A stretch of DNA of 64,000 nt. Origin: Alkalispirochaeta sp. (GTDB lineage Bacteria > Spirochaetota > Spirochaetia > DSM-27196 > Alkalispirochaetaceae). The DNA lies in contig OZ271854.1 in NCBI GenBank assembly GCA_965601925.1, forward strand, positions 4,896,001 through 4,960,000. The letters are read 5' to 3'. Shown here piece after piece: positions 2,703 through 26,706 of the stretch. The position numbers and the translations under genes were made by a program. The stretch's first letter is position 1. Each line of letters starts with the position of its first letter. A model generated the notes under the pieces. The model worked only from the letters and a program-made list of their open reading frames with translations. It made no database searches and was not told the origin of the DNA.

Positions 2703-2709
2703 CTCCACG

Positions 2710-2782
2710 TAGTGGCGAAGGGACTTGAACCCCTGACCGAGCGGATATGAGCCGCTTGCTCTACCAACTGAGCTACGCCACC
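2710..2782 (-). tRNA. tRNA-Met(CAT), probably elongator (Ile2 not excluded); CCA not encoded
   Basis: GGTGGCGTAGCTCAGTTGGTAGAGCA-AGCGG-CTCATAT-CCGCT-CGGTCAGGGGTTCAAGTCCCTTCGCCACTA folds as a cloverleaf. Confidence 0.93.
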
Positions 2783-2827: not shown

Positions 2828-3024
2828 CACGCGGTCACGGACCGCCCGCGAATGAAGCACTTCGATAGATCCTCGGCGGAGCACCTGTTAAGCCACTATT
2901 TATTATATATTAAGTAATATTTAGAGATATATAGATTTATCGGTAAATCACCCGAAAAGGTCGTCCGATATTAATACTATACATGAGACGCGGGGCCCCA
3001 AGGCTCGGCGAGGGGAGATACCAC

Positions 3025-8363: not shown

Positions 8364-8372
8364 CGCTCCTCC

Positions 8373-9836
8373 TTATACGCTCGCCGTCGTGAAGGCGCCG
8401 AGCTTGGCAACCTCGACGGCGAAGGTGCCGCCGAGGTCTTCGGTCTTTAACTCGTATCCGGTGATGGAGCCGGGTTGATCGACGCGCTCGATCGTAAGCG
8501 AGGCGTAGCGCGCGCCGGCGTCGAAGACGACCTTGTGGAGCTCGGCGACGCTTATTACGTCGGTGGCGCCCTGCTCGTCGTCGTACTGGCGCGGGTAGCG
8601 CGACAGAAAGTAGGTACGCAACGCCTCATCCACCGATTGCAGGGTGGCACCGCTGCGCGTGTCCAACTGAAAGGAGTCGGCGACCACGTTAAAGACGACC
8701 TCGGTCACCGCGCGCGCCTCGACGCGTGCGCCGAGTGGGCGACGTTCGGTGGCCGAGACGTACGCCTCGACCTCGTCCAGCTTCACCGTATCGGGGACGC
8801 GATCGTTCTCGCCCTCCCCCACCAGCGGATAGACGTTGACCTGCCCCGGTGCCGGGGAGTACGCGAAGGCGCGAACCACCCCGGGTACCTCGAGCGCCCA
8901 CGCGACGTAGTCGGCAGCAGCTCCGCCCTGGGGACGGTCGCGACGGCGCTGCCGTACTCGGCGGCGAAACTCCTCGACCGTTTCGGCGTCCTCGCCGACC
9001 GTGGGGCGCAGAGCCTCCGGTATCTCCCACGCCGCGACGGCGGTCGCCGCGGCATCGACACCCGCCGGCGGCGCCGTCAACGATACCGTCTCGCCGGCAG
9101 GAATCGCCTCCAAGCGTTCCGGATCGACCGGGAGGAGTACCGCGACGGCGCGCCACACCGTTACCGGGTCGGCCGGGTCGCCGGTGGGCGCGAGCGCGAC
9201 GGTCTCCTCGACGCGATACCGGTGTTCGACCGGTTGGCCGTCGATTACTTCGCTGTAGGTGAGAAGATCTCCCGCCGGAACCGTTGCCGCACCGGAGCCG
9301 GTTATGCGCGCGGCGCTGCGCACGATGACGGTCGCGTCGCGCTCGACCCCGGTCATGGGAGTGACCAGAGAGACGACCTTGCCCGATCCCAGGGTACCGG
9401 CGTCGCCCGCCTCATCGGCTACGAGGGTAATTACGGCGCTCGGCGGCGCGCCGGCAGGCTCCGCATGAGCGACCAGGGTAACGTCGGCCTCCGTGTAGTA
9501 GGTGTTGCCGCCGAATCGGTAGGGCCTGCCAGCGGGGATGGTCGTTCCTGCAGCCCCGGTAACCACGGCGAAGCCGCGCCACGCTACCGCCGGCTTTGGG
9601 GTGAGGCCGTCTTCGGCGCCGCGCTCCACCAGCGCTTCGGCGTCGCAGGTGGCGACGAAGATCTGTCGCCTGACCCACAAACCGAAGCGGTAGAGGAGCG
9701 CCACCGCGCCCGCTTGGGCGGTCGCAAGGACGCGCCACACGGCGCGTGAGAGGAGCGGTGTTTGGGTACCCGTCGCCCCTTCGATATCGGCCAGGATGGA
9801 ATCGCGAATTTCGGTCACCGTCGGTATCGTCTTCAC
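8373..9836 (-). CDS. Baseplate J / Mu gp47 family protein, copy 2 (internally expanded)
   Basis: IPTVTEIRDSILADI...QIFVATCDAEAL...GEDAETVEEFRRRV...PQGGAAADYVAWALEVPGV. Confidence 0.9.
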   Translation of the reverse strand: MKTIPTVTEIRDSILADIEGATGTQTPLLSRAVWRVLATAQAGAVALLYRFGLWVRRQIFVATCDAEALVERGAEDGLTPKPAVAWRGFAVVTGAAGTTIPAGRPYRFGGNTYYTEADVTLVAHAEPAGAPPSAVITLVADEAGDAGTLGSGKVVSLVTPMTGVERDATVIVRSAARITGSGAATVPAGDLLTYSEVIDGQPVEHRYRVEETVALAPTGDPADPVTVWRAVAVLLPVDPERLEAIPAGETVSLTAPPAGVDAAATAVAAWEIPEALRPTVGEDAETVEEFRRRVRQRRRDRPQGGAAADYVAWALEVPGVVRAFAYSPAPGQVNVYPLVGEGENDRVPDTVKLDEVEAYVSATERRPLGARVEARAVTEVVFNVVADSFQLDTRSGATLQSVDEALRTYFLSRYPRQYDDEQGATDVISVAELHKVVFDAGARYASLTIERVDQPGSITGYELKTEDLGGTFAVEVAKLGAFTTASV

Positions 9837-10231
9837 GTGAGCGCTCCTCTCAGGGCGTCCCAGTTGTGGGCGAATCGATACGTGTCGGCGCCTTGATGGA
9901 CGGTTACCGTAATCTCCAGGGCGGTCGCAGAGACGATGCGTGCCACGACGTCAATCCGATCCGCCACCTTCTCGTCGGTCATCCACGCGAGCGCCGCCTT
10001 GGCCGCCTCGATCGCGTCGAGGCGCAGTTGATTGGTAAGGGTGCCGGAGAGCAGTTTCGGCAGGCGCGAGTCGTAGCGCTCCGCAGGCGACGCGATCTCA
10101 TTTCCCCACCACGATTCGGTAAAGAGGGAGAGATAGACCGCGTTGTCCAGCCCGCCGGTAAGGCGCGGTTCGCCGTTCTCGATAACAATGTCCGCCCCGT
10201 CGGGCGTGGGATGAAGGTATAGATCTGACAT
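9833..10231 (-). CDS. Mu gp46-like baseplate protein
   Basis: GLDNAVYLSLFT...WWGN...SRL...AKAALAWM. Confidence 0.85.
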   Translation of the reverse strand: MSDLYLHPTPDGADIVIENGEPRLTGGLDNAVYLSLFTESWWGNEIASPAERYDSRLPKLLSGTLTNQLRLDAIEAAKAALAWMTDEKVADRIDVVARIVSATALEITVTVHQGADTYRFAHNWDALRGALT

Positions 10232-10234
10232 ACG

Positions 10235-10855
10235 CTAATCCGTTGTAACCTTTGACGATTCAGACCCAGAGATGTCGATCGATGTCGCGGGGGCAGCCCC
10301 GGCTCCGAAGCCGCTCGTACCGCCACCGGTGGTCACTCCGCTGTGCGCGTGACCGGTAATCGCACCGGCAATCGCGGCGTCGACCGATCTTTGAAACAAA
10401 TCGAGCGCGTTCTTCAACTCCTCGTACGTTACCAACGGCTTTCCGCTCCCGTCGCTGCCCAACTTGATCGTCTCGGCGTTCACCGTAACGTTTCCGCCGC
10501 TCACCGTTATCTCCCCGGAACCCCCGTCGGCGTCGACGGTAATCGACCCGTCGGTGCCGAAGCGCGCCGAAGCCTTTACCGCCTCCCCCGCCTCGTCGGT
10601 GGAGTAAACCACCAGCTCGCCGGGCTCGACCGGCACCTCGATCTTGTAGTTGTGCACCGCAATGACGATGCGTCCACCCTGGCCGACCGGCACCGAGAGG
10701 GCGCTGTCCCCGGGCGTGGGTGATGACGCGATCCCCGGTGGCGCGTAGAGCTCCGCGGTGCGCTCCTGACTGTCGGCGCCGGTAATCTGTACCACCACGT
10801 TGGGGGCGGTCGCGGTGCCGCGCGTGTCAATCGCGGCGCCGGTAACCTCGTTCAT
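10235..10855 (-). CDS. Baseplate spike, Mu gp45-like
   Basis: PPGIASSPTPGD...GELVVYS OB-fold/beta-helix pattern and C-terminal HAHSGV metal-binding tip; lies between gp44 and gp46. Confidence 0.8.
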   Translation of the reverse strand: MNEVTGAAIDTRGTATAPNVVVQITGADSQERTAELYAPPGIASSPTPGDSALSVPVGQGGRIVIAVHNYKIEVPVEPGELVVYSTDEAGEAVKASARFGTDGSITVDADGGSGEITVSGGNVTVNAETIKLGSDGSGKPLVTYEELKNALDLFQRSVDAAIAGAITGHAHSGVTTGGGTSGFGAGAAPATSIDISGSESSKVTTD

Positions 10856-10860
10856 GTGTC

Positions 10861-11931
10861 CTATCCCCGCCACGGCAACGCTCCCGGTTTGATATCGGCG
10901 TCGTCGTACGCCTCGGGTATCGATAGTTCCAAATCGGCCTCCTGTCCCTCCTCGGCGTCCATGCGGAGGGTGACGCGACTCACAATGAAGCGCGCCGAAC
11001 GGTAGATCATCGCCCCCGGTGAGGTAAGACGCACGATTTCGCCGGGCTCCCACAGATCGCGACCGTGGGTCCACCCCGAGACGGTGACGTAGAGTCGGAA
11101 CGAGTCGATGAGGGCGCGATTGCGCTCAAAAGTCGCCGCCGCGTTGATGTCCTGCGTCTGCTGCGTGAGACGCCGCACGCGGCGCCCCCGCACCTCGACT
11201 CCGAGCCGCTCGGGATCGCTTGCTGCGGCACTCACGATGGGGACCGAGTCGGTGTGCCCGTAGACCACGTACTCCTGAAAGCGCTTTGTCGCATCGAAGG
11301 AAGAGGAGATCATGCGCATGGGCGACAACCCCTCCTCCAGCTCCACCGTTGCGCGCCGCCGACTACTGAAGCGTACGAAGGAGAGCGACCCGTCGCGTTG
11401 CGGTGAAGCAAAGAGTCCGTGCCCGGCGGCGAGGCCCGAAAGCACTTCATAGACCGTGTCGCCCGCCTCGAACTCGACGATGGGCAGCCGCGGCGTGTCG
11501 GGGCGCGCGACGACGCGGTGCGGGTGTGCGAGCTCGCGCGCCACGGTGTTGAAGGTCACATCTTGGAACTCGTAGCCGCGCCCCGGCCCCCCGGCGCTCC
11601 AGTCCAGGAGCACGCCGCTCTTCCCGCGCCCCTCCACGGAGAGGGAGCGCTCGTCCCCCGCGACCTCCGTCGTCAAACGCTCGACGTAGCCGGTAAGCAC
11701 CACCTCGTTGTCGATGAATATCCGCACCTCCGCAGGGGAGAAAGGTACGAAGCGTGCACGATTAACGGCTGTAGGGTCCCAGTCCAGGGTGAGACGGTAC
11801 GCGTCGGCGCACGAGTCGATAGCGCGGGTGACGACGACGCTCGACCACCCCGTGACTCGCTCTCGGGTCTCCGATAGTCCGACCCAGACCTCGGGCGTCC
11901 CTTCGACCGATGCGGGAGTGCGGTCAGACAT
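10861..11931 (-). CDS. Baseplate hub, Mu gp44 (gpP)-like
   Basis: GWSSVVVTRAID...VLTGYVE...VEGRGKSGVLLD...RFQEYVVYG...TVSGW...LWEPG. Confidence 0.9.
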   Translation of the reverse strand: MSDRTPASVEGTPEVWVGLSETRERVTGWSSVVVTRAIDSCADAYRLTLDWDPTAVNRARFVPFSPAEVRIFIDNEVVLTGYVERLTTEVAGDERSLSVEGRGKSGVLLDWSAGGPGRGYEFQDVTFNTVARELAHPHRVVARPDTPRLPIVEFEAGDTVYEVLSGLAAGHGLFASPQRDGSLSFVRFSSRRRATVELEEGLSPMRMISSSFDATKRFQEYVVYGHTDSVPIVSAAASDPERLGVEVRGRRVRRLTQQTQDINAAATFERNRALIDSFRLYVTVSGWTHGRDLWEPGEIVRLTSPGAMIYRSARFIVSRVTLRMDAEEGQEADLELSIPEAYDDADIKPGALPWRG

Positions 11932-12109
11932 CGCGCTCCTCGTCCGCCGGCTTCTCCCGCGCCGCCCACCTGGCTGAGCCCGCCTCGCGGTTGCGGAGCT
12001 CCGCCGCCAATCGGTAACGTTGCAGCGTCTTTCCGAAGATCGCCTCGTCTACCTCCACGAAACGTTCGACCTCATTGGTTTCCGCGTCATAGAGTTCGAC
12101 CGTCCTCAT
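11924..12109 (-). CDS. Small hypothetical protein after fibre B (possible fibre chaperone)
   Basis: 61 aa, overlapping both neighbours (translational coupling). Confidence 0.55.
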   Translation of the reverse strand: MRTVELYDAETNEVERFVEVDEAIFGKTLQRYRLAAELRNREAGSARWAAREKPADEERDV

Positions 12110-13137
12110 ACCGTGTACCTTCCTGCGTGGAGATAGAGGTGGGTGCCTACGTCGGGACCGTGAGTATCGAGGCCTGTGCGGGGGTCACCGTTAACACCAT
12201 CCGAGAATGGATCGGTGGCTCGAACTGTATTAGCGCCGTCGCTACCGTTGGAATCGCGCAAGAGTCCGATAGCGCCGCCGGGTGTAGTATCGGCTACCGT
12301 TTTGACACGATAATCGGGCGCGCCGCTTCCGTAAGAACCGGCTTCCAACCGAGTGTGATGCCCTTGAAACCGATCCCGCCGCATCAATCCCGAAATCGTC
12401 TCCTCGGTGCCGGCGCCGACCGGTAGGCGACCGCGCCACGAGTGGACGCGCGCCGTCGCGGTACTTCCGGCGACGCGATGGGGATAGATCGTCACCTCCG
12501 TTGCGTCCGTCGCCGGAGTACCGGCGACGGTAATCGAAGGTGTCAGCGGGTCGACCGCCGTGATCTCGTAGGTCACCCCGCCGATATCGACGCTCCGCCA
12601 GTCAGTGAAGGAGTCAAAGGCGAGCTGATCCTCCGCAAGCGCGGCGATGAGGTCGTTGTTCACAGGCGTACCGGCGAGGGTGAAGGTGGCGCCGGAAACC
12701 GAACCGGCAAAGCTCGCAACCTCGCCCGCCTGTCCTTCCAGATAGACGACGCGCTGGTACCGTAGCCACGGCACCAGGTCGGGCCAGTTGGCATCATTCA
12801 CGATCTTGGAGCCGGCAAAGTCGGTGAGACAGAGGCGCGGATGGAACGCCGAGGCATCGCTCTTGTCGAAGGGTGAGGGCGGTACGACGTTACCGGCCCT
12901 GGCGATGACGTCGCCCACCTTGTGGCCATAGCGGATGACCATACCGGCGATGGCCGCCTCGACACTGTGCTCCTGCCCCGGCGCCTCGCCGAGGCCCATC
13001 GCCTCTTGGATACCGATAAGCTCGTCCTGGACGTCGTTGCCGTAGTCCGCCGTGTATACCGTACCGTTGGGGTTGGTGAGCTCGTCGTAGTCGACAAAGG
13101 CGTTGTCTACGTGCCCCGGTCCCGCGATGCGTCGCAT
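12106..13137 (-). CDS. Tail fibre-like protein (fibre B)
   Basis: Anchor GTVYTADYGNDVQDELIG; tip DRFQGH...DGVNGDPRTG; paralogue of fibre A. Confidence 0.75.
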   Translation of the reverse strand: MRRIAGPGHVDNAFVDYDELTNPNGTVYTADYGNDVQDELIGIQEAMGLGEAPGQEHSVEAAIAGMVIRYGHKVGDVIARAGNVVPPSPFDKSDASAFHPRLCLTDFAGSKIVNDANWPDLVPWLRYQRVVYLEGQAGEVASFAGSVSGATFTLAGTPVNNDLIAALAEDQLAFDSFTDWRSVDIGGVTYEITAVDPLTPSITVAGTPATDATEVTIYPHRVAGSTATARVHSWRGRLPVGAGTEETISGLMRRDRFQGHHTRLEAGSYGSGAPDYRVKTVADTTPGGAIGLLRDSNGSDGANTVRATDPFSDGVNGDPRTGLDTHGPDVGTHLYLHAGRYTV

Positions 13138-13177
13138 AGCCTACTCCCTCCCCGATCGTGCGGGCCGTGTCGCGCAA

Positions 13178-14254
13178 TTAGACATAGCGCCCCGCGTGGA
13201 TATAGATGTGTGCCGCCGCCGCCCGCGGCTCGGTGTGGGGACCTATGCGGGGGGTGCCGTTGGTGCCGTCGGTGACGGGAGCGTTCACATGTATATCGTT
13301 GATAGTGTTGACACCCACCGCATCTCCTTGTATCGGAGAACTTTGCCCGAATCCGGCTAAAAAAATTCGGTGATTATGTCCCTGAAACCGATCGCGCCGC
13401 CGGAGCCCCGCCGTCAGCGTGTCGATACCGGCGCCGACTACTGCGCGTCCCCGGAGCGAATAGAGCCGCACCGTATCGGTGGTGCTGGCGATGCGGTGGG
13501 GATAGATCTCGATCGCGGCGTCGATCGTCCCGGAGCCGGCGCCGCCGGCCGTCAGAGCGTCAATTTCGATGCGGTTATCGGCGCCGCCCGGGACGTAGTG
13601 CACGGCGGTGATACGGTAGCTGCCAAGAGGGAAAGGGCCGATCGGGGTGGGCAGCGTGACTGAACGCCACGCATCGTACGTCCCGCCGTACTCGTCGGTG
13701 TGCACGCGTGCGTCCTCCGCAAGTGCACCGATCACCGCATCCTCCGCCGGTCCGCCGGCAATCGACAGCGTCCCGGCCGTGCCGCTCTTCTCCCACGCCG
13801 TGACGCCGAACTGCGTCGTCACGCCGCCCGCGCCGTCGCGATAGACCGCACGGTAGTTGTAGAGGCGACTGAAGAGTCCCGGCGCGCCCCCGAAGTCGGG
13901 GAAGTTGGCCGCCGCAATCGTCCTCGTCGTCGCGAAATCGGTGAGGCACACCGCCGGAAAGTAGGTGTGAGGACTACCGGGGTCGAAGGGTACCGGCGGC
14001 CGGACGTCGCCCGCCGCCGCAAAGAGCTCGCCCACCGGCTTACCGTGTTCCTTTACGATGCGAATCATACCGGCAAGGACGTGGCGGTCGGTCCCCGGCG
14101 CCTCGCCGAGACCGGCGTACTCCTGGATACCGATGAGCTCGTCCTGAACGTCGTTGCCGTAGTCCGCCGTATATACCGTACCGACAGGGTTGGTTGCCGC
14201 GTCGTAGTCGACAAACCGGTTGGCGACATTTCCCGATCCCGCAATGCGTCGCAT
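13178..14254 (-). CDS. Tail fibre-like protein (fibre A)
   Basis: MRRIAGSGNVANRFVDYD...NDVQDELIG; tip DRFQGHNH...DGTNGTPRIGPHTEPR; AGGAG RBS; follows gp48 copy 1. Confidence 0.75.
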   Translation of the reverse strand: MRRIAGSGNVANRFVDYDAATNPVGTVYTADYGNDVQDELIGIQEYAGLGEAPGTDRHVLAGMIRIVKEHGKPVGELFAAAGDVRPPVPFDPGSPHTYFPAVCLTDFATTRTIAAANFPDFGGAPGLFSRLYNYRAVYRDGAGGVTTQFGVTAWEKSGTAGTLSIAGGPAEDAVIGALAEDARVHTDEYGGTYDAWRSVTLPTPIGPFPLGSYRITAVHYVPGGADNRIEIDALTAGGAGSGTIDAAIEIYPHRIASTTDTVRLYSLRGRAVVGAGIDTLTAGLRRRDRFQGHNHRIFLAGFGQSSPIQGDAVGVNTINDIHVNAPVTDGTNGTPRIGPHTEPRAAAAHIYIHAGRYV

Positions 14255-14259
14255 AGCTC

Positions 14260-14886
14260 CTACTCCCTTCCCGCTTCCATAAGTCCCGCCATACCGAGAC
14301 CCGCTTGTGCGGTCGGCTCCTGGTTCAGAATCGTGAGGCCCCCGATCACCGGCTCCATCTCCGCCGGGGCGACGCGATCCAGGAGGTTCAACAGGGCGCG
14401 CAACGCGGGGATATCCTGTACCTCCCCGGTAACGCGGTAGTACGCCACCGGATACCTCCCGTCCCTGGGGGCCCCGGGGGGATACCACACCGGATAATCT
14501 TGCGCCGCCATACGCCCCGCCATGCCGCGACCGGCCATGCGCGAGGAGGCAAACCGCACCGGCTCGATCCTCACGTTGGGAAAGGCGACCTGCACGACCT
14601 CATTGAGCGCCTCCAAGGATTGCCCCTTGCCGGCGCGAAACGCCTGAGTAACCACGGTGCGACGCGTACCGACCGGCTGCGTCGCGTCATGGGTCAGCCC
14701 CAGCTCGGCGTACCAGTCGGGCAAGGTCTCGGTCGCCGTCGAGGGTCCCGCCTCGCGGATCGAGTCGGCGAGAAAGGTCTGCGCGCGCTTCACCGAGAGC
14801 GCTATCGCATCCAACACCGCCGTCATCCCGAGGCCGAAGAGGCGCTCCGGAACGAGCCGGCGAATCATACGGGAGACTGAATCCAC
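14260..14886 (-). CDS. Baseplate wedge protein, Mu gp48/DUF2313-like, copy 1
   Basis: EAGPSTATETLPDWYAELGL...GQSLEAL...RVAPAE; follows gp47 copy 1. Confidence 0.78.
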   Translation of the reverse strand: MDSVSRMIRRLVPERLFGLGMTAVLDAIALSVKRAQTFLADSIREAGPSTATETLPDWYAELGLTHDATQPVGTRRTVVTQAFRAGKGQSLEALNEVVQVAFPNVRIEPVRFASSRMAGRGMAGRMAAQDYPVWYPPGAPRDGRYPVAYYRVTGEVQDIPALRALLNLLDRVAPAEMEPVIGGLTILNQEPTAQAGLGMAGLMEAGRE

Positions 14887-15977
14887 ACGACACCTTCCTC
14901 TTCGAGTCTTGCCAACTGGCCGACCTCCACGGTGTGGCTCGCGATCGCCACGCCGCCAGCGTTTTTGAGCGTCACCGTCGCCACCTCGGCCCCGGCGGCG
15001 ATGGCGATTGAGGTAATCTTCGCCGCCGACACGACGTCGCGCGGACCCGGCTCATCGAGATACTGCCGCGGGCGCCGGTCGTAGAGGTGGGCTTCTACCG
15101 CCGAGTCGATCGCATTCCGCACCTCTTGGGTGTTGGGCTCTAGGCCTGCGATCTCGACGCGAAAGATGAGTTCTGTGGGAGCGGCCACGGTAACTGCGGC
15201 GGCGCGAATGGGGGCCCGCCGGAGGTCGGTAACGTACGAACGCACCTCCTCGATTTTGGCCGCATTCGGTATGCGCAACGCAGGGTCCGGGTCGTCGGTG
15301 ATCGGAAAGAGGGCCAGCGACCCCGCCTCGGTGCGTACCACGTGCGCCTCGGCGATCCCCGGTACCTCGGTCGCCCACAAGACCCAGTCGGGGATAGCGC
15401 CGCCCTGGGGCGCGAGACGGCGACGGAGGCGAACCCTCGCGCGAAAGGCCTCGGTCGACTCGGCGTCCTCGCCCACGACCTCCGTCGCCAGCACCATACC
15501 CTCCGCCTCGAGCCCGGCGAGGGGCGTCACCACGGCGATCGTCGCACCGTCGGCGAGACTCGCCCCGTCGCCGCGTTCGGTCGCTTCCAACACGACGGTC
15601 GCCGAGCCCCCGGTAACGGTCACGGCATTCTGCGCGACGTACGTGCGTCCGTTACCGCGAAAAAGCCGTCCGGCGGGAACGGTCGTACCGTCGACGCCGG
15701 CCGCGCGTGCCGTGCCGCGCCACGCCACCGCCGATTTGGGTACCAGTCCCAACTCGGCGCCGCGCTCGGCGAGCGCCGCGGCATCACACGTCGCGATAAA
15801 GATCTGCCGCCGCACCCAACCGCCGAATCGATATACCAGAGCCAGGGCGCCCGCCAACGCGGTCGCCAAGATGCGCCACGTCGAGCGGGGAAGGAGCGGC
15901 GCGGCCTCGCCGGTAGCCGCCTCTATGTCGGCGAGAATCTGGTCGCGGATCTCCTGTATCGTCGGTATCCTCGTCAC
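14865..15977 (-). CDS. Baseplate J / Mu gp47 family protein, copy 1
   Basis: IPTIQEIRDQILADI...QIFIATCD...GEDAESTEAFRARV...PQGGAIPDWVLWATEVPGI. Confidence 0.9.
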   Translation of the reverse strand: MTRIPTIQEIRDQILADIEAATGEAAPLLPRSTWRILATALAGALALVYRFGGWVRRQIFIATCDAAALAERGAELGLVPKSAVAWRGTARAAGVDGTTVPAGRLFRGNGRTYVAQNAVTVTGGSATVVLEATERGDGASLADGATIAVVTPLAGLEAEGMVLATEVVGEDAESTEAFRARVRLRRRLAPQGGAIPDWVLWATEVPGIAEAHVVRTEAGSLALFPITDDPDPALRIPNAAKIEEVRSYVTDLRRAPIRAAAVTVAAPTELIFRVEIAGLEPNTQEVRNAIDSAVEAHLYDRRPRQYLDEPGPRDVVSAAKITSIAIAAGAEVATVTLKNAGGVAIASHTVEVGQLARLEEEGVVWIQSPV

Positions 15978-16034
15978 CGTACGCCCTCCGGTCTCCGGCG
16001 GTCCGCAACGATCTCCATCCCAGTCGAGATGAAA

Positions 16035-17348
16035 TCAGACATAGTAGCGGACCTCGCGTCCTCGCGGCACGAGCAAGAGCTCGTCGCCCGCGAGTTCGTT
16101 GTACTCGATGCATTCGTCCAACCGATCGAGGCTGCCGAAGAGCTCCACGGCGAGATGAATCGGCGTCGTGTCGCCCTCCAGTACTACGGTGCGCTCCGTG
16201 GGAAGCGCCAAAGCTCCATCCACGAGGGCACCGACCGCGGTAGCCATGATCGCCGCACCGTCGCGCGAGATGTCGTACGTCGGCACCCCCATGCCCTCGG
16301 CGAGGGCGTTCATCTCCCCCGCCAAAGACCGCAACTCTTCCACGGCGTTAACCGCCTCGGCGCGGGTACGAATCGGACGCTCCCCCTCGCCACCGCCGTC
16401 CAACCCCGCAACCGCCGCCTCGCTTACCGCCCCCTGGAGCGCGTAGATCTGCGCGACGGACAAGAGTCCGACCGTCCGGGCGGAGGCGATCTCATCGGCG
16501 TTCATGCGCCGGCGCTCGGCCTCCGTTGCGATATTGCGGCCGACGATCGCCGCTGCGCCGGCGGTCGGAGAGGTCAGCGCCTCGTGCAACTGGGAGAATA
16601 CCGCGCGATAGCCCGCGATCTTCTCCCGGACGTTGGTAATAGTTGTGGCGGGAATGCGATAGAGGCGCAAAAAGCTCTGGGCGAGGGCAACGGGGCTCCG
16701 GATCAGCCCCTCGATGTCGCGACTCATCGCAACGACCGCCGACTCCAACCCTCCCCGTACATCCTCGGCGAGGCCGGCGATCGCCGCAAGCTCGCGCCGC
16801 GCCGCCTCGAGTCCGCCCGCCACACTCTCGCGAAGGGCGGTCAGAGCCGACGGGTCGATGATCTCGGCGGAAGCCAAGGACGAAACGACGCTTTCGGCCA
16901 ACCTCGTGATACCGGCGGCGACCGCCTCATCGGCGGCGATGCGCGAGATAAGGTACTCGAACTTGCGCGAATCGGCGGCGACGAACTCCACCGAAAAGAG
17001 GGCACGCCCCACGCCGTTAAGAAAATGTTCGCTCTGTTGCCACGAGACCGGAAGGACTCCCTGAACGCCCCACCGCGGATGGTCGAGTACGCCCGGCCCC
17101 GCCTCATCCAACGCCGCGGCGAACCGATCCGCCTCCCGATCGTAATCGGGCCCCGAGATGTAACAGGTGACCGGATAGCGCTTGATCGCCTCTCCCAGAT
17201 CCTGGATACCGCCGGAGTTTTCGCCGACGTACTCGCTCACCACCGTGTTGCGGCCCCCGGAGCGCGTCAACTCGTCGAACTGCAGCACGAAGGTCTCGCC
17301 CGAGGCGGTGGTGTAGCGGAACGTTCGCAGGCGATCCGTGGCGCTCAC
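16035..17348 (-). CDS. Mu gpN (gp43)-like 'DNA circularization' / tube-initiator protein
   Basis: GGRNTVVSEY...IQDLG...GPDY...ALDEAGPGVLDHPRWG...FSVEFV N-domain; LysM-like C-terminus (PIHLAVELFG...N...LLVPRG). Confidence 0.88.
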   Translation of the reverse strand: MSATDRLRTFRYTTASGETFVLQFDELTRSGGRNTVVSEYVGENSGGIQDLGEAIKRYPVTCYISGPDYDREADRFAAALDEAGPGVLDHPRWGVQGVLPVSWQQSEHFLNGVGRALFSVEFVAADSRKFEYLISRIAADEAVAAGITRLAESVVSSLASAEIIDPSALTALRESVAGGLEAARRELAAIAGLAEDVRGGLESAVVAMSRDIEGLIRSPVALAQSFLRLYRIPATTITNVREKIAGYRAVFSQLHEALTSPTAGAAAIVGRNIATEAERRRMNADEIASARTVGLLSVAQIYALQGAVSEAAVAGLDGGGEGERPIRTRAEAVNAVEELRSLAGEMNALAEGMGVPTYDISRDGAAIMATAVGALVDGALALPTERTVVLEGDTTPIHLAVELFGSLDRLDECIEYNELAGDELLLVPRGREVRYYV

Positions 17349-17731
17349 GGTTTTGCCGTCCCGTAACCGGTATATATGGTGACGCCGTGGGCACTCCCCC
17401 TCCGTCGGAGGCGCGTTCCGGCGGGCAATGCCACGTTAATGTCGACGACGTGCCGCTCCTCGTTGTAGACCCGCGACTCGACGGTGCGGCCGACGCCTTC
17501 TCCATCACCGCCCGTGACTTTCGGTAGACGTACGCCGGCTGCATCGGTCGCGTCGCCCGGGGCGCCGGCGCGTCCGCTCGACGCGGGGCTCTCGTGGGAG
17601 GGCGACGGCGAGGAGGTCCCGGCCGCGTCCGACGAGGCGCTCGGCGTCGTACCGGCCCCGGACTGCTCCACGGGCGGCACCTGCCCGGCGGCGCGATCGA
17701 ATGCGTCGAAGACGGTACTTACCGCCGACAT
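17345..17731 (-). CDS. Miniature / internally deleted tape-measure-like protein (128 aa)
   Basis: Sits at the TMP position; TMP-like ends (VSTVFDAFDR...; VDINVALPAGTRL...GVTIYTGY) flank an S/A/G/P/T low-complexity linker; GTGA overlap with gpN; weak RBS. Confidence 0.5.
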   Translation of the reverse strand: MSAVSTVFDAFDRAAGQVPPVEQSGAGTTPSASSDAAGTSSPSPSHESPASSGRAGAPGDATDAAGVRLPKVTGGDGEGVGRTVESRVYNEERHVVDINVALPAGTRLRRRGSAHGVTIYTGYGTAKP

Positions 17732-17768
17732 CGAGGCGCTATCGTACGGCCCGGTATGGTACTCCGGC

Positions 17769-17954
17769 TTATTGGCGGATATTGACACGTTGCAAGACCT
17801 CCGCATCGCGACGGTAGAAGTCCATCGCGATCTCATACCACCACCTGAGATCGCGTACGCTCATCGCGGCGATCTCGGAGGGTGGAAATCCAAAACGGTC
17901 GGCGACGGTGCCCATGAGTTCACGGAGCTCTCCGTCGCCGATTAGGCGAAAAAA
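17769..17954 (-). CDS. Frameshifted C-terminal extension of the tail assembly chaperone (gpT/GpE'-like)
   Basis: -1 frame ORF ...VADRFGFPPSEIAAMSVRDLRWWY..., matching the P2 GpE'-type FxxxPSExxxMxxxxLxxW pattern. Confidence 0.7.
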   Translation of the reverse strand, partial: FFRLIGDGELRELMGTVADRFGFPPSEIAAMSVRDLRWWYEIAMDFYRRDAEVLQRVNIRQ

Positions 17955-18466
17955 CCGGTTAGCGCCCCCAAAACCCGCATGTCCCGACGATAGATGCGCT
18001 CGGCGATTCCGAGCGGCCAACTCGTATCGAGGACCGTTATGACGCGAAGGGTCAGCTCCGTCGCCTGTGCGAGCTCGACCTGCATGTCGTCCCCGCCCCC
18101 ACGGGAGACGAACATGTTGCGGCCGATCTTTCTGAGATCCGCCGCCGTTGGCTCCCGCAGAACGACCGTGTCGAAGGACGCGCCGTTGTCGAGGGTAAAG
18201 GGCCGCTGTAGACGGTAGAGGAGCGTGCCCTCACTGGCGTCGTAGTCGACCCACCCCTTGCGGATCGCCGCAAGCACGATCGGCCGCTGGCCCGCGGCGA
18301 GCAGCCCCCACTCGCGCTCCATCGACGCCAACCACTGCTCGGCAACCTCACCGGCCACGACATCGTCGGTCGAATCGTAGTCCGGGTTTCGGTGCTCTTC
18401 GTGAGCGTCGCGGGCCGCGTCCGACATTGTCCCGTTCGACCCGCGATCGATCTCCGTTCTATTCAC
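17942..18466 (-). CDS. Phage tail assembly chaperone (Mu gp41-like)
   Basis: Follows the tube; LQRPFTL...VVLREPTAADL...RDMRVL motif. Confidence 0.78.
   Translation of the reverse strand: MNRTEIDRGSNGTMSDAARDAHEEHRNPDYDSTDDVVAGEVAEQWLASMEREWGLLAAGQRPIVLAAIRKGWVDYDASEGTLLYRLQRPFTLDNGASFDTVVLREPTAADLRKIGRNMFVSRGGGDDMQVELAQATELTLRVITVLDTSWPLGIAERIYRRDMRVLGALTGFFA
17948..17954 (-). promoter_or_regulatory. Programmed -1 ribosomal frameshift heptamer T TTT TTC
   Basis: ACC GGT TTT TTC GCC TAA at the end of the chaperone gene; the -1 frame stays open to 17769. Confidence 0.75.
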
Positions 18467-18485
18467 ACGATCTCTCCGGGACGCA

Positions 18486-18869
18486 TTACACCGGTGCGAA
18501 CTGTACGCCGCGCATGGAGATTCCCAACGTTCCGTCGCGTCCGCTATAGGAGATATCGCCCTCGACCTGGAGCTCCCCCATCCACGTCTCGCCGGTGGCC
18601 AGGGTGAGGGTTACCGGCGTCGGCGCGCTATGGTCGGCGACCGCCTGGAGGGCGGCGAAGTCCTGCGTCTCCGGGTCGATGCTAATCGTCAATCCGTCGA
18701 ATCCGCCGAGTTTGCGCGTCTGCGTCGTGTGCATACCGCCGTTGCCGGTCGGTGCGTTGGTGTTGGTGAAGCCTGCGCGAATCAAGGTGACGCTCGTCTG
18801 GGGCGCCGGCGCATACTCGCGTCCGTCGATCGTAAGTTGGCGGATGTCACCGCCCCGTACCGTTGCCAT
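18486..18869 (-). CDS. Tail tube protein (Mu gpM-like)
   Basis: 127 aa, beta-rich, TAATG-coupled to the sheath; VTLTLATGETW...DGTLGISMRG; GGAGG RBS. Confidence 0.8.
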   Translation of the reverse strand: MATVRGGDIRQLTIDGREYAPAPQTSVTLIRAGFTNTNAPTGNGGMHTTQTRKLGGFDGLTISIDPETQDFAALQAVADHSAPTPVTLTLATGETWMGELQVEGDISYSGRDGTLGISMRGVQFAPV

Positions 18870-20359
18870 TAGTTCGTACCTCCAACGAGAAAAGCCCATT
18901 CCACCTTCGCCGCCAGGATGCGTAGGCCCGCCGACGGAATGTCCGGTATGAGAAGATTGACGCGTCCCGGGTTGGCGGCGTCGATCTCCGCGGTGACGCC
19001 GGCGGCCACCGTATCGCGGTCGGCGGTAAGTCCCCGTGCCGACCAGTCGTTGACGAGCGCCAAGGCGTAGGCGACGACGGTGTTGGGTCTGACCGCGTAG
19101 GTCGGAGCCGGGGGCGCCGAGTCGGCGACGATCACCGCCTGCTGAAAGGGCGCCGACGAGAAGGTGATATCCAGCGCGTTAATCTTGAACTGCAGGTTGG
19201 GAATGATCACTGCAAAGCGCCAATCGTCGGTCGGCACGCCGGTATCGGTGGTGGTGCGCGTGGTGACCGTGTCGCCGATCGTCACACCGCCGTCGGGCAG
19301 GTTATAGGTGTGCGAGCCGCCGGCCTTTACCAACTGGTCGCGCACGGCGTAGGTAAGATCGTTCGCCCCCCCGGCGAGGATGCCCGGGATGCGATTGCCG
19401 CGCACCGGTACGCCCGGTCGCGAACCGTGAGCACCGGCCCACATACCGGCAAAGGCCGGCGCGATCTCGAAGGGAGCGCTCGGCGAACCCAGAACCGGAA
19501 CGGTGACGGTAAACTCCGAATTACGCCCGCCCAAAAAGGAGGTGTACTGGTCGATCGTACCGGTGAATCCGACGATCTGAACGCACATGCGCTTGACCCC
19601 CGGTGCCTGGCGGTCACGACACGCCGTCTCCACCGCAGAAATTGTCGCCCCATCGTCGTAGGGGTTTGCGATCTCGGAGTACCACGTGTCGCCGAGGCCG
19701 GCGAGCGCCGCGGTAAGATCGGGGGCACCGGCGCCGCCGGTCATCTTGTTGGTTGCCGGTACGGTGACCGAGATATCGGTCGGCAACACATCGGTCGACC
19801 GCAGGCCCATACGCACATCGATCTGGTTACCCGAGAGTCCCGCCCACTTCGCGGCAAGGGTAACCGTACCGTCCGCGGGCGCGGCGTCGGCGGCGCTCAC
19901 CGGTAGCCTGGGGTCGGCGTTCACCGCGTTCACGAGGGAGGTTCCGATAGCCGCCGCCGTGTCACCGGAGGCGACCCCGACCGCGACGCGCCGTCCCGCG
20001 ATATAGATCGCCACCTCGCCGGCTCCGGCCGCCGTGCCGACTACGGTAACGGTCGCCGTCGCCGAGGCGGTTCCACCCGACACCGGAAGGGCCGACACGC
20101 GGTAGCCGCCACCGTAGCGAAAGACCGCCTCGGCCATGAGCGCGAGTAGCGACCCCTCGCCGTAGCGATCGCGGGCGTCGGCGACGTCGCGCAGAGCCTG
20201 CGGCACGTCGACCGTCGGCGTCAAAGCGGTGTCGAATTGACCGATCAAGAGAACATGGTGCTCGAACGCGGGAGACCCGCCCGCGCGATTGACCGCCTCC
20301 TGCTCGACAAAGGTCGCCGAAGCGGCGGCGGTGGCGGGGGTCAGCGTAAAACTAATCAT
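18869..20359 (-). CDS. Contractile tail sheath protein (Mu gpL-like)
   Basis: MISF...VLLIGQ...YGEGSLLALMA...IYIAGRRV...DPRLPVSA...VTLAAKWAGLSGNQID...GGAGAPDL...NPGRVNLLIP. Confidence 0.93.
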   Translation of the reverse strand: MISFTLTPATAAASATFVEQEAVNRAGGSPAFEHHVLLIGQFDTALTPTVDVPQALRDVADARDRYGEGSLLALMAEAVFRYGGGYRVSALPVSGGTASATATVTVVGTAAGAGEVAIYIAGRRVAVGVASGDTAAAIGTSLVNAVNADPRLPVSAADAAPADGTVTLAAKWAGLSGNQIDVRMGLRSTDVLPTDISVTVPATNKMTGGAGAPDLTAALAGLGDTWYSEIANPYDDGATISAVETACRDRQAPGVKRMCVQIVGFTGTIDQYTSFLGGRNSEFTVTVPVLGSPSAPFEIAPAFAGMWAGAHGSRPGVPVRGNRIPGILAGGANDLTYAVRDQLVKAGGSHTYNLPDGGVTIGDTVTTRTTTDTGVPTDDWRFAVIIPNLQFKINALDITFSSAPFQQAVIVADSAPPAPTYAVRPNTVVAYALALVNDWSARGLTADRDTVAAGVTAEIDAANPGRVNLLIPDIPSAGLRILAAKVEWAFLVGGTN

Positions 20360-20976
20360 ACTCTTCCCTCCAATTGATACAATCCGGACCAACGGCCCGT
20401 ATCGATGTGTATTTCATTCAGCGGAACGCCCTGGACCTCGCCCACGTCCCACACCAGTTCAACGGTCATAACGACCCGCCGCGTCCGGGAGGGGTGCACG
20501 CCGTGGCGCGGGTCGTCCCAAGAGCTCGGATCGTTCCACGAGATCGTGACCTGCGGTTGCGCAAGCCTCCCGACCACGCCGATGGGCAAGTCAAAGTCCC
20601 AACCTCCCGCGGTCCACAAAGCACGAATCACTTGGGTCACGAGGTAGCGCAGGCGCGCCCCGACCGCCGTGTCCGCCTCCGCAGGGGTGGGAAAGGTTGC
20701 GCCGGTGGGAACCGCCGAGACGCAGTCGAGGTAATAGGCCGCCTCGTAGGCCATGGCGCGCGCCGAGCTCGCCTCACCGCCCCGAAACTTCAACTCCGCG
20801 GCGTAGACGAAAACACTCGCGGGATCGTCGGAGGTGGCGCCCACGTCGGTGGTGTTGTCGGAACGCACCACGAATGCACGGCCCGGGTCCGCCGCCGCCT
20901 CGTCGGCCGCAAACGACTCCAGGCGCGCCACCACGCGATCGAACACGATATCGAAGACCTCGCGTACGTCGCTCAT
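20356..20976 (-). CDS. Putative tail terminator / completion protein
   Basis: Immediately upstream of the sheath with an ATGA overlap; alpha/beta pattern compatible; assignment by position. Confidence 0.55.
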   Translation of the reverse strand: MSDVREVFDIVFDRVVARLESFAADEAAADPGRAFVVRSDNTTDVGATSDDPASVFVYAAELKFRGGEASSARAMAYEAAYYLDCVSAVPTGATFPTPAEADTAVGARLRYLVTQVIRALWTAGGWDFDLPIGVVGRLAQPQVTISWNDPSSWDDPRHGVHPSRTRRVVMTVELVWDVGEVQGVPLNEIHIDTGRWSGLYQLEGRV

Positions 20977-21016
20977 ATCCTCACCCATCGGCGGGGGCAC
21001 TGGCGGCGCGAGGCGA

Positions 21017-21277
21017 TCATTTCGCCCCTTTCGCGGTGCGAGTCGTCCGGCGCGTATTAGGGGTCGGGCCGGCCTTTTCGGAGGTGGTGCGCTTGGCGCT
21101 CGTCTTCTTGGAAGTGCCGCGGCGCCCCGCGGGTCGCACGATCTCCTCGACTACGCCGCGCACGAGGAGCGACTCGATGTCGACGTGCCGCGCAGCCTCA
21201 TCGGAGATAACCGAACCGGGGCGCAAAACGCCTCGTCCTACCGCCACGGTATAGCCCTCTTTCACACGATACGACAT
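21017..21277 (-). CDS. Small basic phage-type protein, first gene of the tail operon
   Basis: YRVKEG...LRPGSVI...IESLLVRGVVEE, then a K/R/T-rich tail. Confidence 0.55.
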   Translation of the reverse strand: MSYRVKEGYTVAVGRGVLRPGSVISDEAARHVDIESLLVRGVVEEIVRPAGRRGTSKKTSAKRTTSEKAGPTPNTRRTTRTAKGAK

Positions 21278-21585
21278 GATTCGATATTACTCTTTCGATA
21301 TAAATATTTTCTCTGTAAAAGAAGCTCTTTGAGAAGACAGTGCTTGTCAACAGCAATATTATTTCTCTTGAAAAATAATGATTGAAACAAAGCTTGAGAA
21401 ATAATCACAACCTTACACTATCCTTAGTTTTTGACCGTGTCAAAGAGAAATCACCCCTTTTCAATGAATTCTTATTTATACAACTCGCAATATCCAACTG
21501 CTTGACAGGCCGCCCGAGTATGCCCGATTCTCGAAGCTGGTAGTCCGACGACAGCCGGCCGCAACGATGCAGCCGCGGAGGCTTT

Positions 21586-24198
21586 ATGAACCGCAGACCC
21601 GGCCAAAACCGCAATCGCCGCTCGCAACCACCGCTGTACGTAGACATCGACGTTCGTACGGAGCGCCGCTCCGCCGCCGGTGGTGGCGATGTCACGAAGA
21701 GGCGTCAAGACGCCGCAAGCCCCTCCGCGAAAACGGAAGCGGTACGTGACACATCCGCCCTCCAATACATCGTGAAACGCCATACCGGCGGAACCGTTTC
21801 GGGCTGGGTCGTGGTGCGCCACACCGACGGATCGATCGCCGTCGACCGCCTGGGCCGATACGGCGACGACATCACCGTCATCGACCGCGTTGACGGCATA
21901 ACCATGCGCTACCCCGATTCGGGAAGAGAACATCCCGCCGCCTTCGTCGCCCGTGTATTGGGAATCGACACTCGAGTCGTCGCGACCTCGCTTAAACGCG
22001 CAGGGTGGGAACGGCTCGACTACGACGGTGGGTGGTCGAATGCGCCCGACGGCGAGCCGTGGATTCTCGAAGGGTCGGATCACGAAGCGGCAGATGCGGC
22101 ATTTCGACGCATCGGCGGAGCGAGTACCTCGGGTAGGGACAACGCCCCCGACTACTCGCCCTCCGGCGAAACCGTGACGAAGCGCGGCATTCCCCTTAAC
22201 TCGCCGCCAAACACATTCGATAGTGAGGTCGCCCGCTCCCGGTCGCAATACGCCGGCCTCAAGGCGACCTATCGCACCCGCACGGGCGAGGAGCATCGTC
22301 GTTTCGGCGAGGAGATCATGGCGCGCGAGGACTCTCAACGCATCGTCGGTCGCGCCGGAAAGAGCGATCGACGCGGCACGGCCCGCACCGTGTCGGGAAC
22401 ACGAGAGCAACCGAGCGGCTCGCGGTCCGACGCGAACGGTGGGGACGATATACCGTCCTCGCCCACACAACGCCGCGATCCGGTCGACCTCGAGCGCGAA
22501 GCCTTTACAGTCGCTACCGGCTGGGTCGTCGTGCTGCGAACGAGCGGGCAGGTAATTGTCGACCGTAGAACGAGTTCCGGTAACGATGTCACGGTTGTTG
22601 ATGCGGTGCGCGGCACGACGGAGACGCATCGCTATCCAGGCAGCGGGAGTCGGACGGGGTTTATCTGTACGATTCTCGGACTTCCGTTCGATCCGACTCA
22701 CCCATTAGACAATCCCGTTAATCAAGGTTTAAGCGGAGCCGGTTGGACTTGGCATTCGGAGACCGATACGTGGACCAACTCACGGTCCGATACGGCGTGG
22801 ACATTATCCCGCATCCAACTCGATGAGATGCAGGTACAATCCTACTCCGCCGAGCAGGATGGGGGGGTAGGAGCAGAAGAGTTATCATCTTTAAAAATAG
22901 ATATCGCAATCCGGAACGCTCTCGCCGGCCTCGAAAGAGTAAGCTTCTTTAACGCAGGATCTACGGATCTTCACGAATTCGGAAGAATGCTCGCAAACGA
23001 ACCGAATCAACATACCGTTGAGCTCATTTCTGATCTGGCAAATCAACGGTCTCAGGAAGCTTCCGAGTACTTATTGTCTAGCGATACCGAGTCTGAAATC
23101 GGCGTCTGGAACTACGAGATTGCAAACTATGAATACCACCGATCACAGTTTTACCTCACCCTCGTAGCGGTCTTTCGAGGAACCATACCACCGAGTACTG
23201 CCGCGCCCGCGCGTCAAACGCTGGATATCGCATACCAGCGCCTCTCTTCGTTTCTACGGGACCGCAATCAGAACCCATTTCACGCTTCAGATGCGTCCAC
23301 GACTTTGAATACCTTGCACTATCGAGAAGCATCCTCAAGGCGAAACATCGAGACAGACTCCCCACCGGAGATTGACATTGTCATGGCGACGATCGGTGAG
23401 TTGCGAAGACTCATAACCCTGAGTGAACCCTTAGATGCGGAGTTCGAGGATCCGAACGATCCAAATGTCCAAAGACGAGTCGAAGCGGTTAACTTTCGAA
23501 TAGTCACGATGATGCTGGTACTACTCAGTACAGCGATCGTGAATCGTCACGGTGAGCTCCGACGATCATTGATAAGAGTATTTCCAGTGTCTCTCCGGTC
23601 GCACGAGCACTTGGATGCATTTCGTGAACTGGTAATACGACGAAATCCCGTAGACTACGAAAACTACCGAAGGCGCACCAACCAGAGGCTTGCGCGGATA
23701 GCACTGACCGCAGCACTAAGTTTGGCATTGGCCAAGGTGGCTATCGCGTCGAGTCTCATAAAAACTGTTAGCGTATCCGGTGCCTTGATCGGTGGAACTG
23801 TCGCATGGACGGGAACCGCATTAGGAGGAGGGTCTCGAGAGCAACGAATTCAAGCTGCCGTAATCGGGGCGATACTTGGCTCGTTCAATTTCGTACCGGC
23901 TCAAAACATGCCTGGACTAATGAGCTATCTAAGCCAAATTGGAATCGAGGCGGTGACCGGTGCCCTATCGTCTCTTTTTGGTCAAGTTTTTAGCGGAGCA
24001 GGTTCCATTGATTTTGACCATATAGGCGCGTCAGCTCTCCTTTCCGGCATAGCTAGCGCCACAAACTTTTCCAGTCTATTTCGTCATTTAGCCGATAATC
24101 GGATCATAATTTTAAATGAATTGGGAAAATTCACAGAATTAACATCGAATGTTATAGCTTCTAGAATCTTATTTCTCATGAGTGAAAGCCGAGAATGA
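21586..24198 (+). CDS. 870-aa hypothetical protein with duplicated N-terminal domain and Gly/Ala-rich hydrophobic C-terminus (candidate effector)
   Basis: GGAGG RBS; long open frame; internal repeat GWVVV..T.G...VDR....G.D.TV.D.V.G.T..RYP; several hydrophobic helices at the C-terminus. Confidence 0.75.
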   Translation: MNRRPGQNRNRRSQPPLYVDIDVRTERRSAAGGGDVTKRRQDAASPSAKTEAVRDTSALQYIVKRHTGGTVSGWVVVRHTDGSIAVDRLGRYGDDITVIDRVDGITMRYPDSGREHPAAFVARVLGIDTRVVATSLKRAGWERLDYDGGWSNAPDGEPWILEGSDHEAADAAFRRIGGASTSGRDNAPDYSPSGETVTKRGIPLNSPPNTFDSEVARSRSQYAGLKATYRTRTGEEHRRFGEEIMAREDSQRIVGRAGKSDRRGTARTVSGTREQPSGSRSDANGGDDIPSSPTQRRDPVDLEREAFTVATGWVVVLRTSGQVIVDRRTSSGNDVTVVDAVRGTTETHRYPGSGSRTGFICTILGLPFDPTHPLDNPVNQGLSGAGWTWHSETDTWTNSRSDTAWTLSRIQLDEMQVQSYSAEQDGGVGAEELSSLKIDIAIRNALAGLERVSFFNAGSTDLHEFGRMLANEPNQHTVELISDLANQRSQEASEYLLSSDTESEIGVWNYEIANYEYHRSQFYLTLVAVFRGTIPPSTAAPARQTLDIAYQRLSSFLRDRNQNPFHASDASTTLNTLHYREASSRRNIETDSPPEIDIVMATIGELRRLITLSEPLDAEFEDPNDPNVQRRVEAVNFRIVTMMLVLLSTAIVNRHGELRRSLIRVFPVSLRSHEHLDAFRELVIRRNPVDYENYRRRTNQRLARIALTAALSLALAKVAIASSLIKTVSVSGALIGGTVAWTGTALGGGSREQRIQAAVIGAILGSFNFVPAQNMPGLMSYLSQIGIEAVTGALSSLFGQVFSGAGSIDFDHIGASALLSGIASATNFSSLFRHLADNRIIILNELGKFTELTSNVIASRILFLMSESRE

Positions 24199-24340
24199 AC
24201 TTTCCTTTATTGATCCTTCATCATTTGCCCGCTATTTACTCTCAGGTAGCACGCCATTAATGGCAGCCATCGTAAAAGAGAATCGTGTCACGAAAACAAA
24301 GTCTCAAGGAGTATCGGTGACTCCCTCCCCCTTACTCCGC

Positions 24341-24458
24341 GATCCCGGCGTGCCAATCCGCGGCAACGGGATAGTACCAGTCCTCAACCGGAGCATTGAG
24401 CGTAAGAAAGAGACACCTCAAGGTGGATCGCCGCCGCGGTATTTTCGGAAACTATCTC
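24341..24458 (-). repeat. Decayed direct copy of the 3' end of the adenylate cyclase gene (24974-25093)
   Basis: gatcccggcgtgcca.tccgcgg.aacgg...ccagtcctc..ccgg...agaaagagacacc...gatcgccg aligns by eye, with substitutions and a small deletion. Confidence 0.8.
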
Positions 24459-24573
24459 CACGGCGTTGCTTGCGGATGGGGAGATGATCGACATCGCGCG
24501 CGCCTTAGATTGTCGATCGGCTAATCAATCGCGGCGTCGCAAGCTCCCGCTCCGAGCGCTACAGTGTGCGATA

Positions 24574-24867: not shown

Positions 24868-24955
24868 CGTCGAGGAGACCGGCGAACGGCATCCGAGAAA
24901 TCGCATCATAGCACGGTAGTCGTCGACGTCGTATGCACGAGTGGGGCGACATCCC

Positions 24956-26425: not shown

Positions 26426-26595
26426 CTTGGTCCTCCGTGAAATCGTATTCTTACTTCTCCGGTGTGTCGCGCCGGCACGGTACGCTTTGCACTCCCTCGG
26501 TGGGAGTTGTAATTGCATCATTATATCGTATGCAGCGCATTCTTGCACGGAAGCCTTCGGAAGGAGGGGTCGAGGGGCGGGTAGTAATGGACGTT

Positions 26596-26706
26596 CTACA
26601 CCAAATTATGCCGTCGCGCCGTCTCCATGAGGCGGCGATTCCACGCGTTGTCGTTGAGAAAGCGCATCTTGTCGCGATAGTCGTCGATGCGGCTGGTGCG
26701 TTCCTG
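26596..26706 (-). repeat. Displaced 3' end (111 bp) of the 29393-32191 gene; direct repeat of 29393-29503
   Basis: Both copies encode QERTSRIDDYRDKMRFLNDNAWNRRLMETARRHNLV*; 4 mismatches, all silent. Confidence 0.93.

Follow-up and report, generated by a model that had tools for sequence, protein, structure and literature searches.

The 64,000-nucleotide stretch of Alkalispirochaeta sp. DNA considered here (NCBI GenBank assembly GCA_965601925.1, contig OZ271854.1, positions 4,896,001 to 4,960,000 of the forward strand; hereafter the window) contains an operon for a headless Mu-type contractile tail and, beside it, a gene for an 870-amino-acid (aa) protein, P0001 (21586..24198, + strand, in window coordinates). 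The locus raises the question of what kind of protein P0001 is, and whether it belongs to the tail. The data presented below indicate that P0001 is a chimera of a conserved chassis, consisting of a leader and two copies of a domain that we designate D, and a C-terminal half of foreign composition. The protein is probably toxin-like with a swapped tip, and likely acts as an antibacterial effector of the polymorphic-toxin type. P0001 represents a genuine toxin-like family that has not been described before and that includes a novel domain, and its link to the tail rests on a pairing known from one genome.

An initial annotation, made from the sequence alone, had proposed this open reading frame (ORF) as a candidate modular effector. 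The ORF is real: all 870 codons are open, a GGAGG ribosome-binding site lies four bases 5' of the ATG (21577..21581, + strand), and the position of the start codon is matched by the homologue P0002. The gene is present in a single copy in the host genome, which is assembled as one contig (5.05-Mb, 96.7% complete). An AT-rich spacer (21278..21585) between P0001 and the divergent tail operon is common to both and holds 4 promoter-consensus matches, compared to 2.3 +/- 1.6 by chance. Contigs from two runs of one sample, which may be the source sample, cover 16000-26632 without a break, which argues against an assembly chimera in this interval. The whole protein had 0 matches in Pfam, PHROGs, NCBIfam, and PADLOC, tblastn against phages and plasmids gave no match, and P0001 was absent from the 60 relatives searched. 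Literature searches found nothing on this protein family or on spirochete tailocins.

To identify homologues, phmmer was run against 1.84 billion representatives, returning 5 matches, query included. P0002 (metagenome, 890 aa) is 65% identical to P0001 over aa 1-405, after which it continues with an M23 peptidase, a third copy of D, and a different end, where a Cys/His pattern that Pfam does not confirm is taken by us to be C39-like, that is, cysteine-peptidase-like. P0003 (metagenome, 884 aa) has the leader and one D in common with P0001 (42%) and bears a GxSxG motif that we presume to be lipase-like, for which Pfam gives only E 0.017 and the precomputed annotation is PF26363. P0004 clusters with a long member, P0006, that is an Rhs protein (TIGR03696 above cut-off), and P0005 is a giant-toxin-type fragment carrying one D. 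Both full-length homologues found (2/2, P0002 and P0003) retain the leader and D and differ in their C-terminal domains.

The composition of the gene also changes along its length. The initial annotation had described a steady fall of GC toward the 3' end, which was not borne out; instead, GC at third codon positions (GC3) drops from 0.71 to 0.48 as one step, best placed at codon ~358 (positions 315-429 lie within two log units of it), with a gain of 23.3 log units compared to a maximum of 11.0 in 2000 permutations. Past the step, GC3 stays near 0.5, and a second dip after codon ~795 is weak (gain 6.5). Identity to P0002 collapses after aa ~400-405, near the GC3 step, and codon adaptation measured against 2491 host ORFs places aa 1-350 at the 58th percentile, which is host-like, and aa 351-870 at the 0th, which is foreign. 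That GC3 changes as a step rather than a slope points to a tip swap in or near the second copy of D (D2), presumably by recombination there.

A recent, non-functional fusion, in which the resident chassis was joined in frame to foreign DNA, might leave a similar trace. The codon use of the C-terminal half is the most foreign possible by this measure, most of that half is without homologues, and debris lies downstream of the gene. However, the frame stays open for 460 codons at ~50% GC, contains an Rhs-tip homologue in register, and is preceded by a good ribosome-binding site, and we consider a dead fusion very improbable.

The Rhs-tip homologue is a helical domain at aa ~442-582 (22909..23331, + strand) that is homologous to the C-terminal domain of P0006. 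The core of the match, aa 508-581, is 32% identical and scores 37 bits, compared to at most 5 bits in 500 local shuffles. In P0003, the same domain gives a marginal match: it scores 7.4 bits, and the top score among 500 shuffles is 5.2. A profile search with the Rhs tip recovered P0001 alone, a weak result given that the same word search also missed P0006.

The remainder of the protein forms a helical C-terminal region (23368..24198, + strand) with hydrophobic segments at aa 632-653 and 701-737 and Gly/Ala-rich helices, and no homologue or family was found for aa 595-870. The top hydrophobic 19-mers are aa 634-652 (1.96) and 707-725 (1.89). The majority of the Gly/Ala motifs listed in the initial annotation fall below 1.35. 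The pore-former-like character that it ascribed to the C-terminus survives as hydrophobicity, but not as a tie to any pore-former family: Pfam gave no match to a pore-forming domain beyond a glycine zipper at E 0.29. The single-sequence model of the whole protein, with a pLDDT of 34, was too poor for a fold comparison. In the ESM Atlas, aa 425-870 matched unnamed clusters (0.93), and the nearest named matches, taken as leads, were the pre-toxin helical domains DUF637 (0.86) and PT-TG (0.85); PMC3482391 includes DUF637 among its pre-toxin domains. No known toxin family matches the C-terminal half, and no catalytic motif was recognised there. The C-terminal helices may form a pore or serve as a translocation aid.

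It is conceivable that P0001 is instead a non-toxic, membrane-anchored accessory built from toxin-derived parts, for instance, one involved in envelope binding or anti-phage activity. This would be consistent with two segments of transmembrane-range hydrophobicity, the lack of an immunity gene, and the lack of a recognised catalytic motif in the C-terminal half. Against it, the homologues bear hydrolase tips and no such helices, the middle of P0001 is an Rhs tip, and PADLOC gave 0 matches, making such a role quite improbable.

Further evidence for a toxin-like P0001 with a swapped tip comes from domain D. The first copy spans aa 58-177 (21757..22116, + strand) and D2 spans aa 298-410 (22477..22815, + strand), with homology to P0002 stopping inside D2 at aa ~405; between them lies a polar linker (aa 178-297; 22117..22476, + strand) that is common to P0002. 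Aligned over 109 aa, the two copies share 33% identity (pairwise E 3e-14). The duplication of a ~95-aa beta-domain noted in the initial annotation is therefore real, but the unit is ~110 aa long and alpha+beta rather than all-beta, as seen in an AlphaFold model (pLDDT 81) derived from a 26-row alignment. D is without a family or fold match: no Pfam family is common to more than 1 of its 26 members, none of the Pfam, NCBIfam, and PHROG families scanned corresponds to it, matches to PDB sequences were unconvincing, Foldseek searches of the model against PDB and BFVD returned 0 hits at E<=0.001, and the ESM Atlas gave no match. A winged-helix-like fold was considered, but the best Z score from VIA-align was only 3.1 and was not accepted as a match.

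A first profile of D matched 3 of 401 genomes of the phylum, and subsequent searches covered two more sets: 8 of 99 genomes of the order had D, as did 23 of 401 from another family. Among the 38 D loci read, 37 gave a match of at least 12 bits, comprising 31 giant frames of the polymorphic-toxin type, 5 stand-alone genes encoding D and a C39 domain, and 1 false match (HTH). In the giant frames, D stands directly before the variable end, i.e., in the pre-toxin position. Of 16 regions downstream of D, 3 were above the M23 cut-off, and there was 1 weak M23, 1 weak NlpC/P60, and 1 DUF261 match; the other 10 had no informative match. An HExxH-like motif before D in the giant toxins was evaluated as a possible eCIS_core and rejected (HHalign probability 1%). 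The stand-alone genes encode Peptidase_C39_2 after D and are followed by a gene with a NADase_transloc domain, which by its position is likely the immunity gene.

The host itself encodes a giant toxin-type protein of 3150 aa with a signal-peptide-like start (G000:C1:1324600-1348417; L010, L006). This gene, for which there was no Pfam or NCBIfam match, is followed by orphan C-terminal cassettes, one of them with D, and by low-GC immunity-like genes, and a second such cassette lies near G000:C1:4146000 (L053). A tree built from 31 D domains unites all six copies of the leader-bearing class in one group (99/98); its backbone is weak. These results identify D as an undescribed, foldable domain linking three toxin chassis in the phylum, and even without a link to the tail, D could serve as a marker for collecting new envelope-acting toxin tips.

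Taken with the differing tips of P0002 and P0003, the pre-toxin position of D and the match between the middle of P0001 and an Rhs C-terminal domain support the earlier suggestion of a modular effector with swapped C-termini. As in the polymorphic toxins described by Zhang et al. 2012 (PMC3482391), P0001 combines a constant N-terminal part with C-terminal domains that were probably exchanged by recombination; the likeness extends to one domain common to an Rhs tip, and to the pre-toxin position that D takes in giant toxins accompanied by orphan cassettes. Unlike them, P0001 lacks an adjacent immunity gene, adjoining orphan cassettes, and a known trafficking domain. The absence of a clear immunity gene, already remarked in the initial annotation, was upheld. 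Where one would be expected, there is a broken, ~80% identical copy of the 3' end of a cyclase gene (24333..24470, - strand; the gene itself is at 24956-26548) and a gene fragment, with an overlapping 101-aa ORF that has no Pfam match.

Does P0001 belong to the tail? One indication is its leader (aa 1-57; 21586..21756, + strand), which is basic and hydrophilic, conserved in P0002 (31 of the first 40 residues identical to P0001) and weakly conserved in P0003. The Arg-rich N-terminus of the initial annotation is evident here, there is no hydrophobic stretch, and the Kyte-Doolittle sum of the first 35 residues, -55.3, is below that of 99.5% of the 924 host ORFs that have a clear ribosome-binding site. 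In hydrophilicity, a comparison of composition only, the leader resembles those of cargo proteins of extracellular contractile injection systems (eCIS), and it fits the hydrophilic, disordered loading sequences that PMC11297309 and bioRxiv 10.64898/2026.05.27.728243 report for them.

The tail operon (6010..21277, - strand) has 0 internal stops. It begins with a small ORF, a gene in the terminator position, and genes for the sheath (18869..20359, - strand; the sole sheath found in the genome), tube, chaperone, a mini tape measure protein (mini-TMP), and gp43, and continues with J, gp48, and two fibres, then gp44, gp45, gp46, and a second J and gp48 with an FG-GAP fibre. The tail set is complete and without head or terminase genes, as in an R-tailocin. 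Searches of the host genome found no terminase (two families), PhageMin_Tail, VipB, or Rhs core, and the head proteins of three related prophages had no terminase, portal, or capsid match in it. Apart from this tail, no injection-type machine was found in the host genome, and P0001 occupies the place that head genes hold in related phages, on the other strand. Based on these observations, we tentatively suggest that P0001 may be exported with the neighbouring tail; its loading into the tail lumen is doubtful.

Several findings weigh against a tail-delivered antibacterial effector. No family or fold match indicates toxicity of P0001, and P0001 and the tail operon are encoded on opposite strands. 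The tail may be a decaying prophage, given that most of the TMP is lost and no lysis gene could be recognised. Among 301 genomes of the class, the six sheaths nearest to the one in this tail (41-53%) belong to prophages with terminase, portal, protease, and capsid genes (labels confirmed by PHROGs for 2-3), and 16 of 18 IMG/VR relatives show head genes, with 2 ending too early and one record likely repeating G941. None of these 24 tail relatives is visibly headless, all look like ordinary phages, and D and P0001 are absent from all of them. No AAA ATPase that could act as a loader was found among the island ORFs scanned. The D copies of the leader-bearing class stand apart in the tree from the five eCIS/C39 copies, and in one genome (G823) stand-alone D and C39 genes lie among housekeeping genes. 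Pattern searches of viral, metagenome, and genome contigs for the genomic context of the chassis (P0002, P0003) gave no match; a further profile search gave 0/281, which shows little since the 884-column profile had no positive control. Finally, the island is composite, with cyclase, PQQ-propeller, SH3, and toxin-antitoxin genes.

Much of this would fit with P0001 being a modular toxin that merely shares the island as a passenger, that is, a stand-alone gene that came to lie on a composite island next to the tail of a decaying prophage, released by lysis or otherwise, or orphaned from an absent delivery system. The opposite strand, the composite island with its 109-bp duplication and broken cyclase copy, the ordinary appearance of the tail relatives (24/24), and the missing loader ATPase all agree with this, as do the orphan D and C39 genes of G823 and the D-bearing orphan cassettes at the host's giant toxin locus. 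On the other hand, 18/18 tail genes checked are open, with mostly host-like codons (13/18 at or above the 75th codon-adaptation percentile), the mini-TMP retains its frame and ends, two baseplate-fibre modules are still present, three proteins have the leader in conserved form, and the genome yielded no type VI secretion system, Rhs, or second sheath. We regard such a passenger gene as a plausible, if not the preferred, explanation.

The tape measure bears on a further alternative. The mini-TMP gene (17345..17731, - strand; start codon inferred) encodes ~128 aa, with a clear C-terminal end (17.7 bits), a weak N-terminal motif, and a short polar linker in place of the middle. It is truncated and not full length, compared to 461-596 aa in six relatives and 445-623 aa for the 11 complete TMPs of the IMG/VR relatives. 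TMPs often have Gly/Ala-rich hydrophobic helices, as does P0001, and the initial annotation had raised the possibility that P0001 replaces the missing TMP body; it might then act as tail ruler or membrane channel. However, P0001 scores -2.5 bits on a profile built from six related TMPs, which is lower than its shuffled versions score. In addition, the homologues that share its chassis end in enzyme domains instead, and the locus still encodes a mini-TMP that has both ends. The proposal is not supported, and we assign it a minimal probability.

Returning to export with the tail, comparison to known systems is informative. Like the cargo of PVC, Afp, and AlgoCIS, P0001 has a disordered, hydrophilic leader, a variable C-terminus, and a gene beside a headless contractile tail, and some toxins adjacent to eCIS_core genes likewise contain D. 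Unlike those eCIS, the neighbouring tail is Mu-type, probably descends from temperate phages with lambda-like heads, and has a mini-TMP. No eCIS_core (DUF4157) was found in P0001, its locus, or the host genome, in a genome scan that left control genomes blank as well. The stand-alone toxins with D and Peptidase_C39_2 (G212, G534, G680) resemble P0001 in having D before the effector and no Sec-type leader that could be seen; they differ in their separate D clade, in the NADase_transloc gene that comes next, and in having eCIS_core directly upstream in 3/4 genomes. The G680 locus also has a weak hub match and an AAA ATPase.

Mu-type R-tailocins with cargo bacteriocins (Pseudomonas Rp4), as covered in PMC4684702, likewise have a headless Mu-like tail, several fibres, and a toxin-like gene in the island; according to the same paper, Pseudomonas tailocin clusters can hold bacteriocin genes whose products are recovered together with the particles, and LlpA was found in purified particles. 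The locus studied here departs from the Rp4 clusters described there in having no recognised lysis or regulator genes, a TMP of ~128 compared to 354-963 aa, a multi-domain polymorphic cargo, and a host that, judging by its gene content, is likely a spirochete. Weak matches to Lsa33, LipL45, and TDE1717 are examples of that content, and the relatives with D are likely spirochetes too.

If P0001 is indeed exported with the tail, the following sequence of events can be envisaged. The leader, without a Sec-type signal, would target P0001 to the tail particle, where it would be loaded into the particle or ride on it. D would then place the tip at the envelope of the target cell, a role proposed because its named partners are peptidoglycan-hydrolase-type and lipase-like domains. 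There, the hydrophobic helices might insert in the target inner membrane, either forming a pore or helping the helical domain to cross. P0001 would act solely from outside, which would account for the missing immunity gene. More speculatively, and rather unlikely at present, the spirochete lineage may have made a Mu-tailed temperate phage, without its head, with a tape measure reduced to both ends, and with two baseplate-fibre modules, into an ultra-short, AAA-free injector of leader-tagged polymorphic effectors of a new family (leader, D, and swappable tip), an independent origin of cargo-delivering eCIS. At present, eCIS with cargo are classed apart from tailocins, which have none. A headless tail with intact phages as its nearest relatives, paired with a tip-swapping toxin, would, if true, illustrate how a prophage becomes an effector injector, and would put to the test both the need for an AAA ATPase in loading and tail-building by a 128-aa tape measure.

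Regarding the origin of the tail, a temperate phage family with lambda-like heads and Mu-like tails is widespread at the class level (L065-L070, L082-L092, L103-L120), and this lambda-headed, Mu-tailed family is the likely source of the headless tail. Two modules of J, gp48, and fibre are present (6010-15977, - strand), one between gp43 and gp44, unlike the single module of related phages. The FG-GAP fibre has repeats, at about 6330-7110, and foreign codon use. The chaperone preceding the mini-TMP ends with a GGTTTTTT run and an overlapping short frame (17345-18020, - strand), an arrangement that we take to resemble programmed-frameshift chaperone pairs. A fourth tail-fibre gene is inverted at the left end of the island (2983..3885, + strand) and is followed by two unassigned ORFs with strongly host-like codon use (3905-4459 and 4459-4821, + strand); in the G969 prophage, a similar 182-aa gene, as judged by position, also follows the fibre. 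Neither Pfam nor PHROGs recognised lysis or regulator genes in the island.

The 26.5-kb stretch with the tail and P0001 is flanked by nrdR and a TPR gene, and a tRNA-Met gene (2709..2782, - strand) marks the left boundary of the island. The gap from nrdR/tRNA-Met to the TPR gene measures 150-230 bp in 4 of 5 congeners, and in the fifth the two flanking genes lie at two contig ends. The sequence at 26598..26706 duplicates 109 bp (98%) from the 3' end of the TPR gene, at 29395-29503, and this duplication identifies the island as composite. The 109-bp copies flank two low-GC genes, for a PQQ-type propeller and an SH3 protein, which mark a second insertion at the right edge of the island. The cyclase gene (24956-26548, - strand) encodes GAF and class III cyclase domains; no Pycsar effector was identified, and the PADLOC matches to PycC reflect the shared cyclase domain.

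In the likely Treponema relatives with eCIS_core next to D and C39 genes, the eCIS-like loci (L058:1121-13319 in G680, L060 in G534, and L009 in G212) contain a hub-like gene, a radical SAM gene, and an AAA ATPase, followed by repeated cassettes of eCIS_core, toxin, and immunity-like genes, with eCIS_core as a separate gene. Within the island, a BrnT-like/CopG-antitoxin type II toxin-antitoxin pair is located at 4838-5493 (+ strand), amid imperfect repeats spaced ~168 bp apart.

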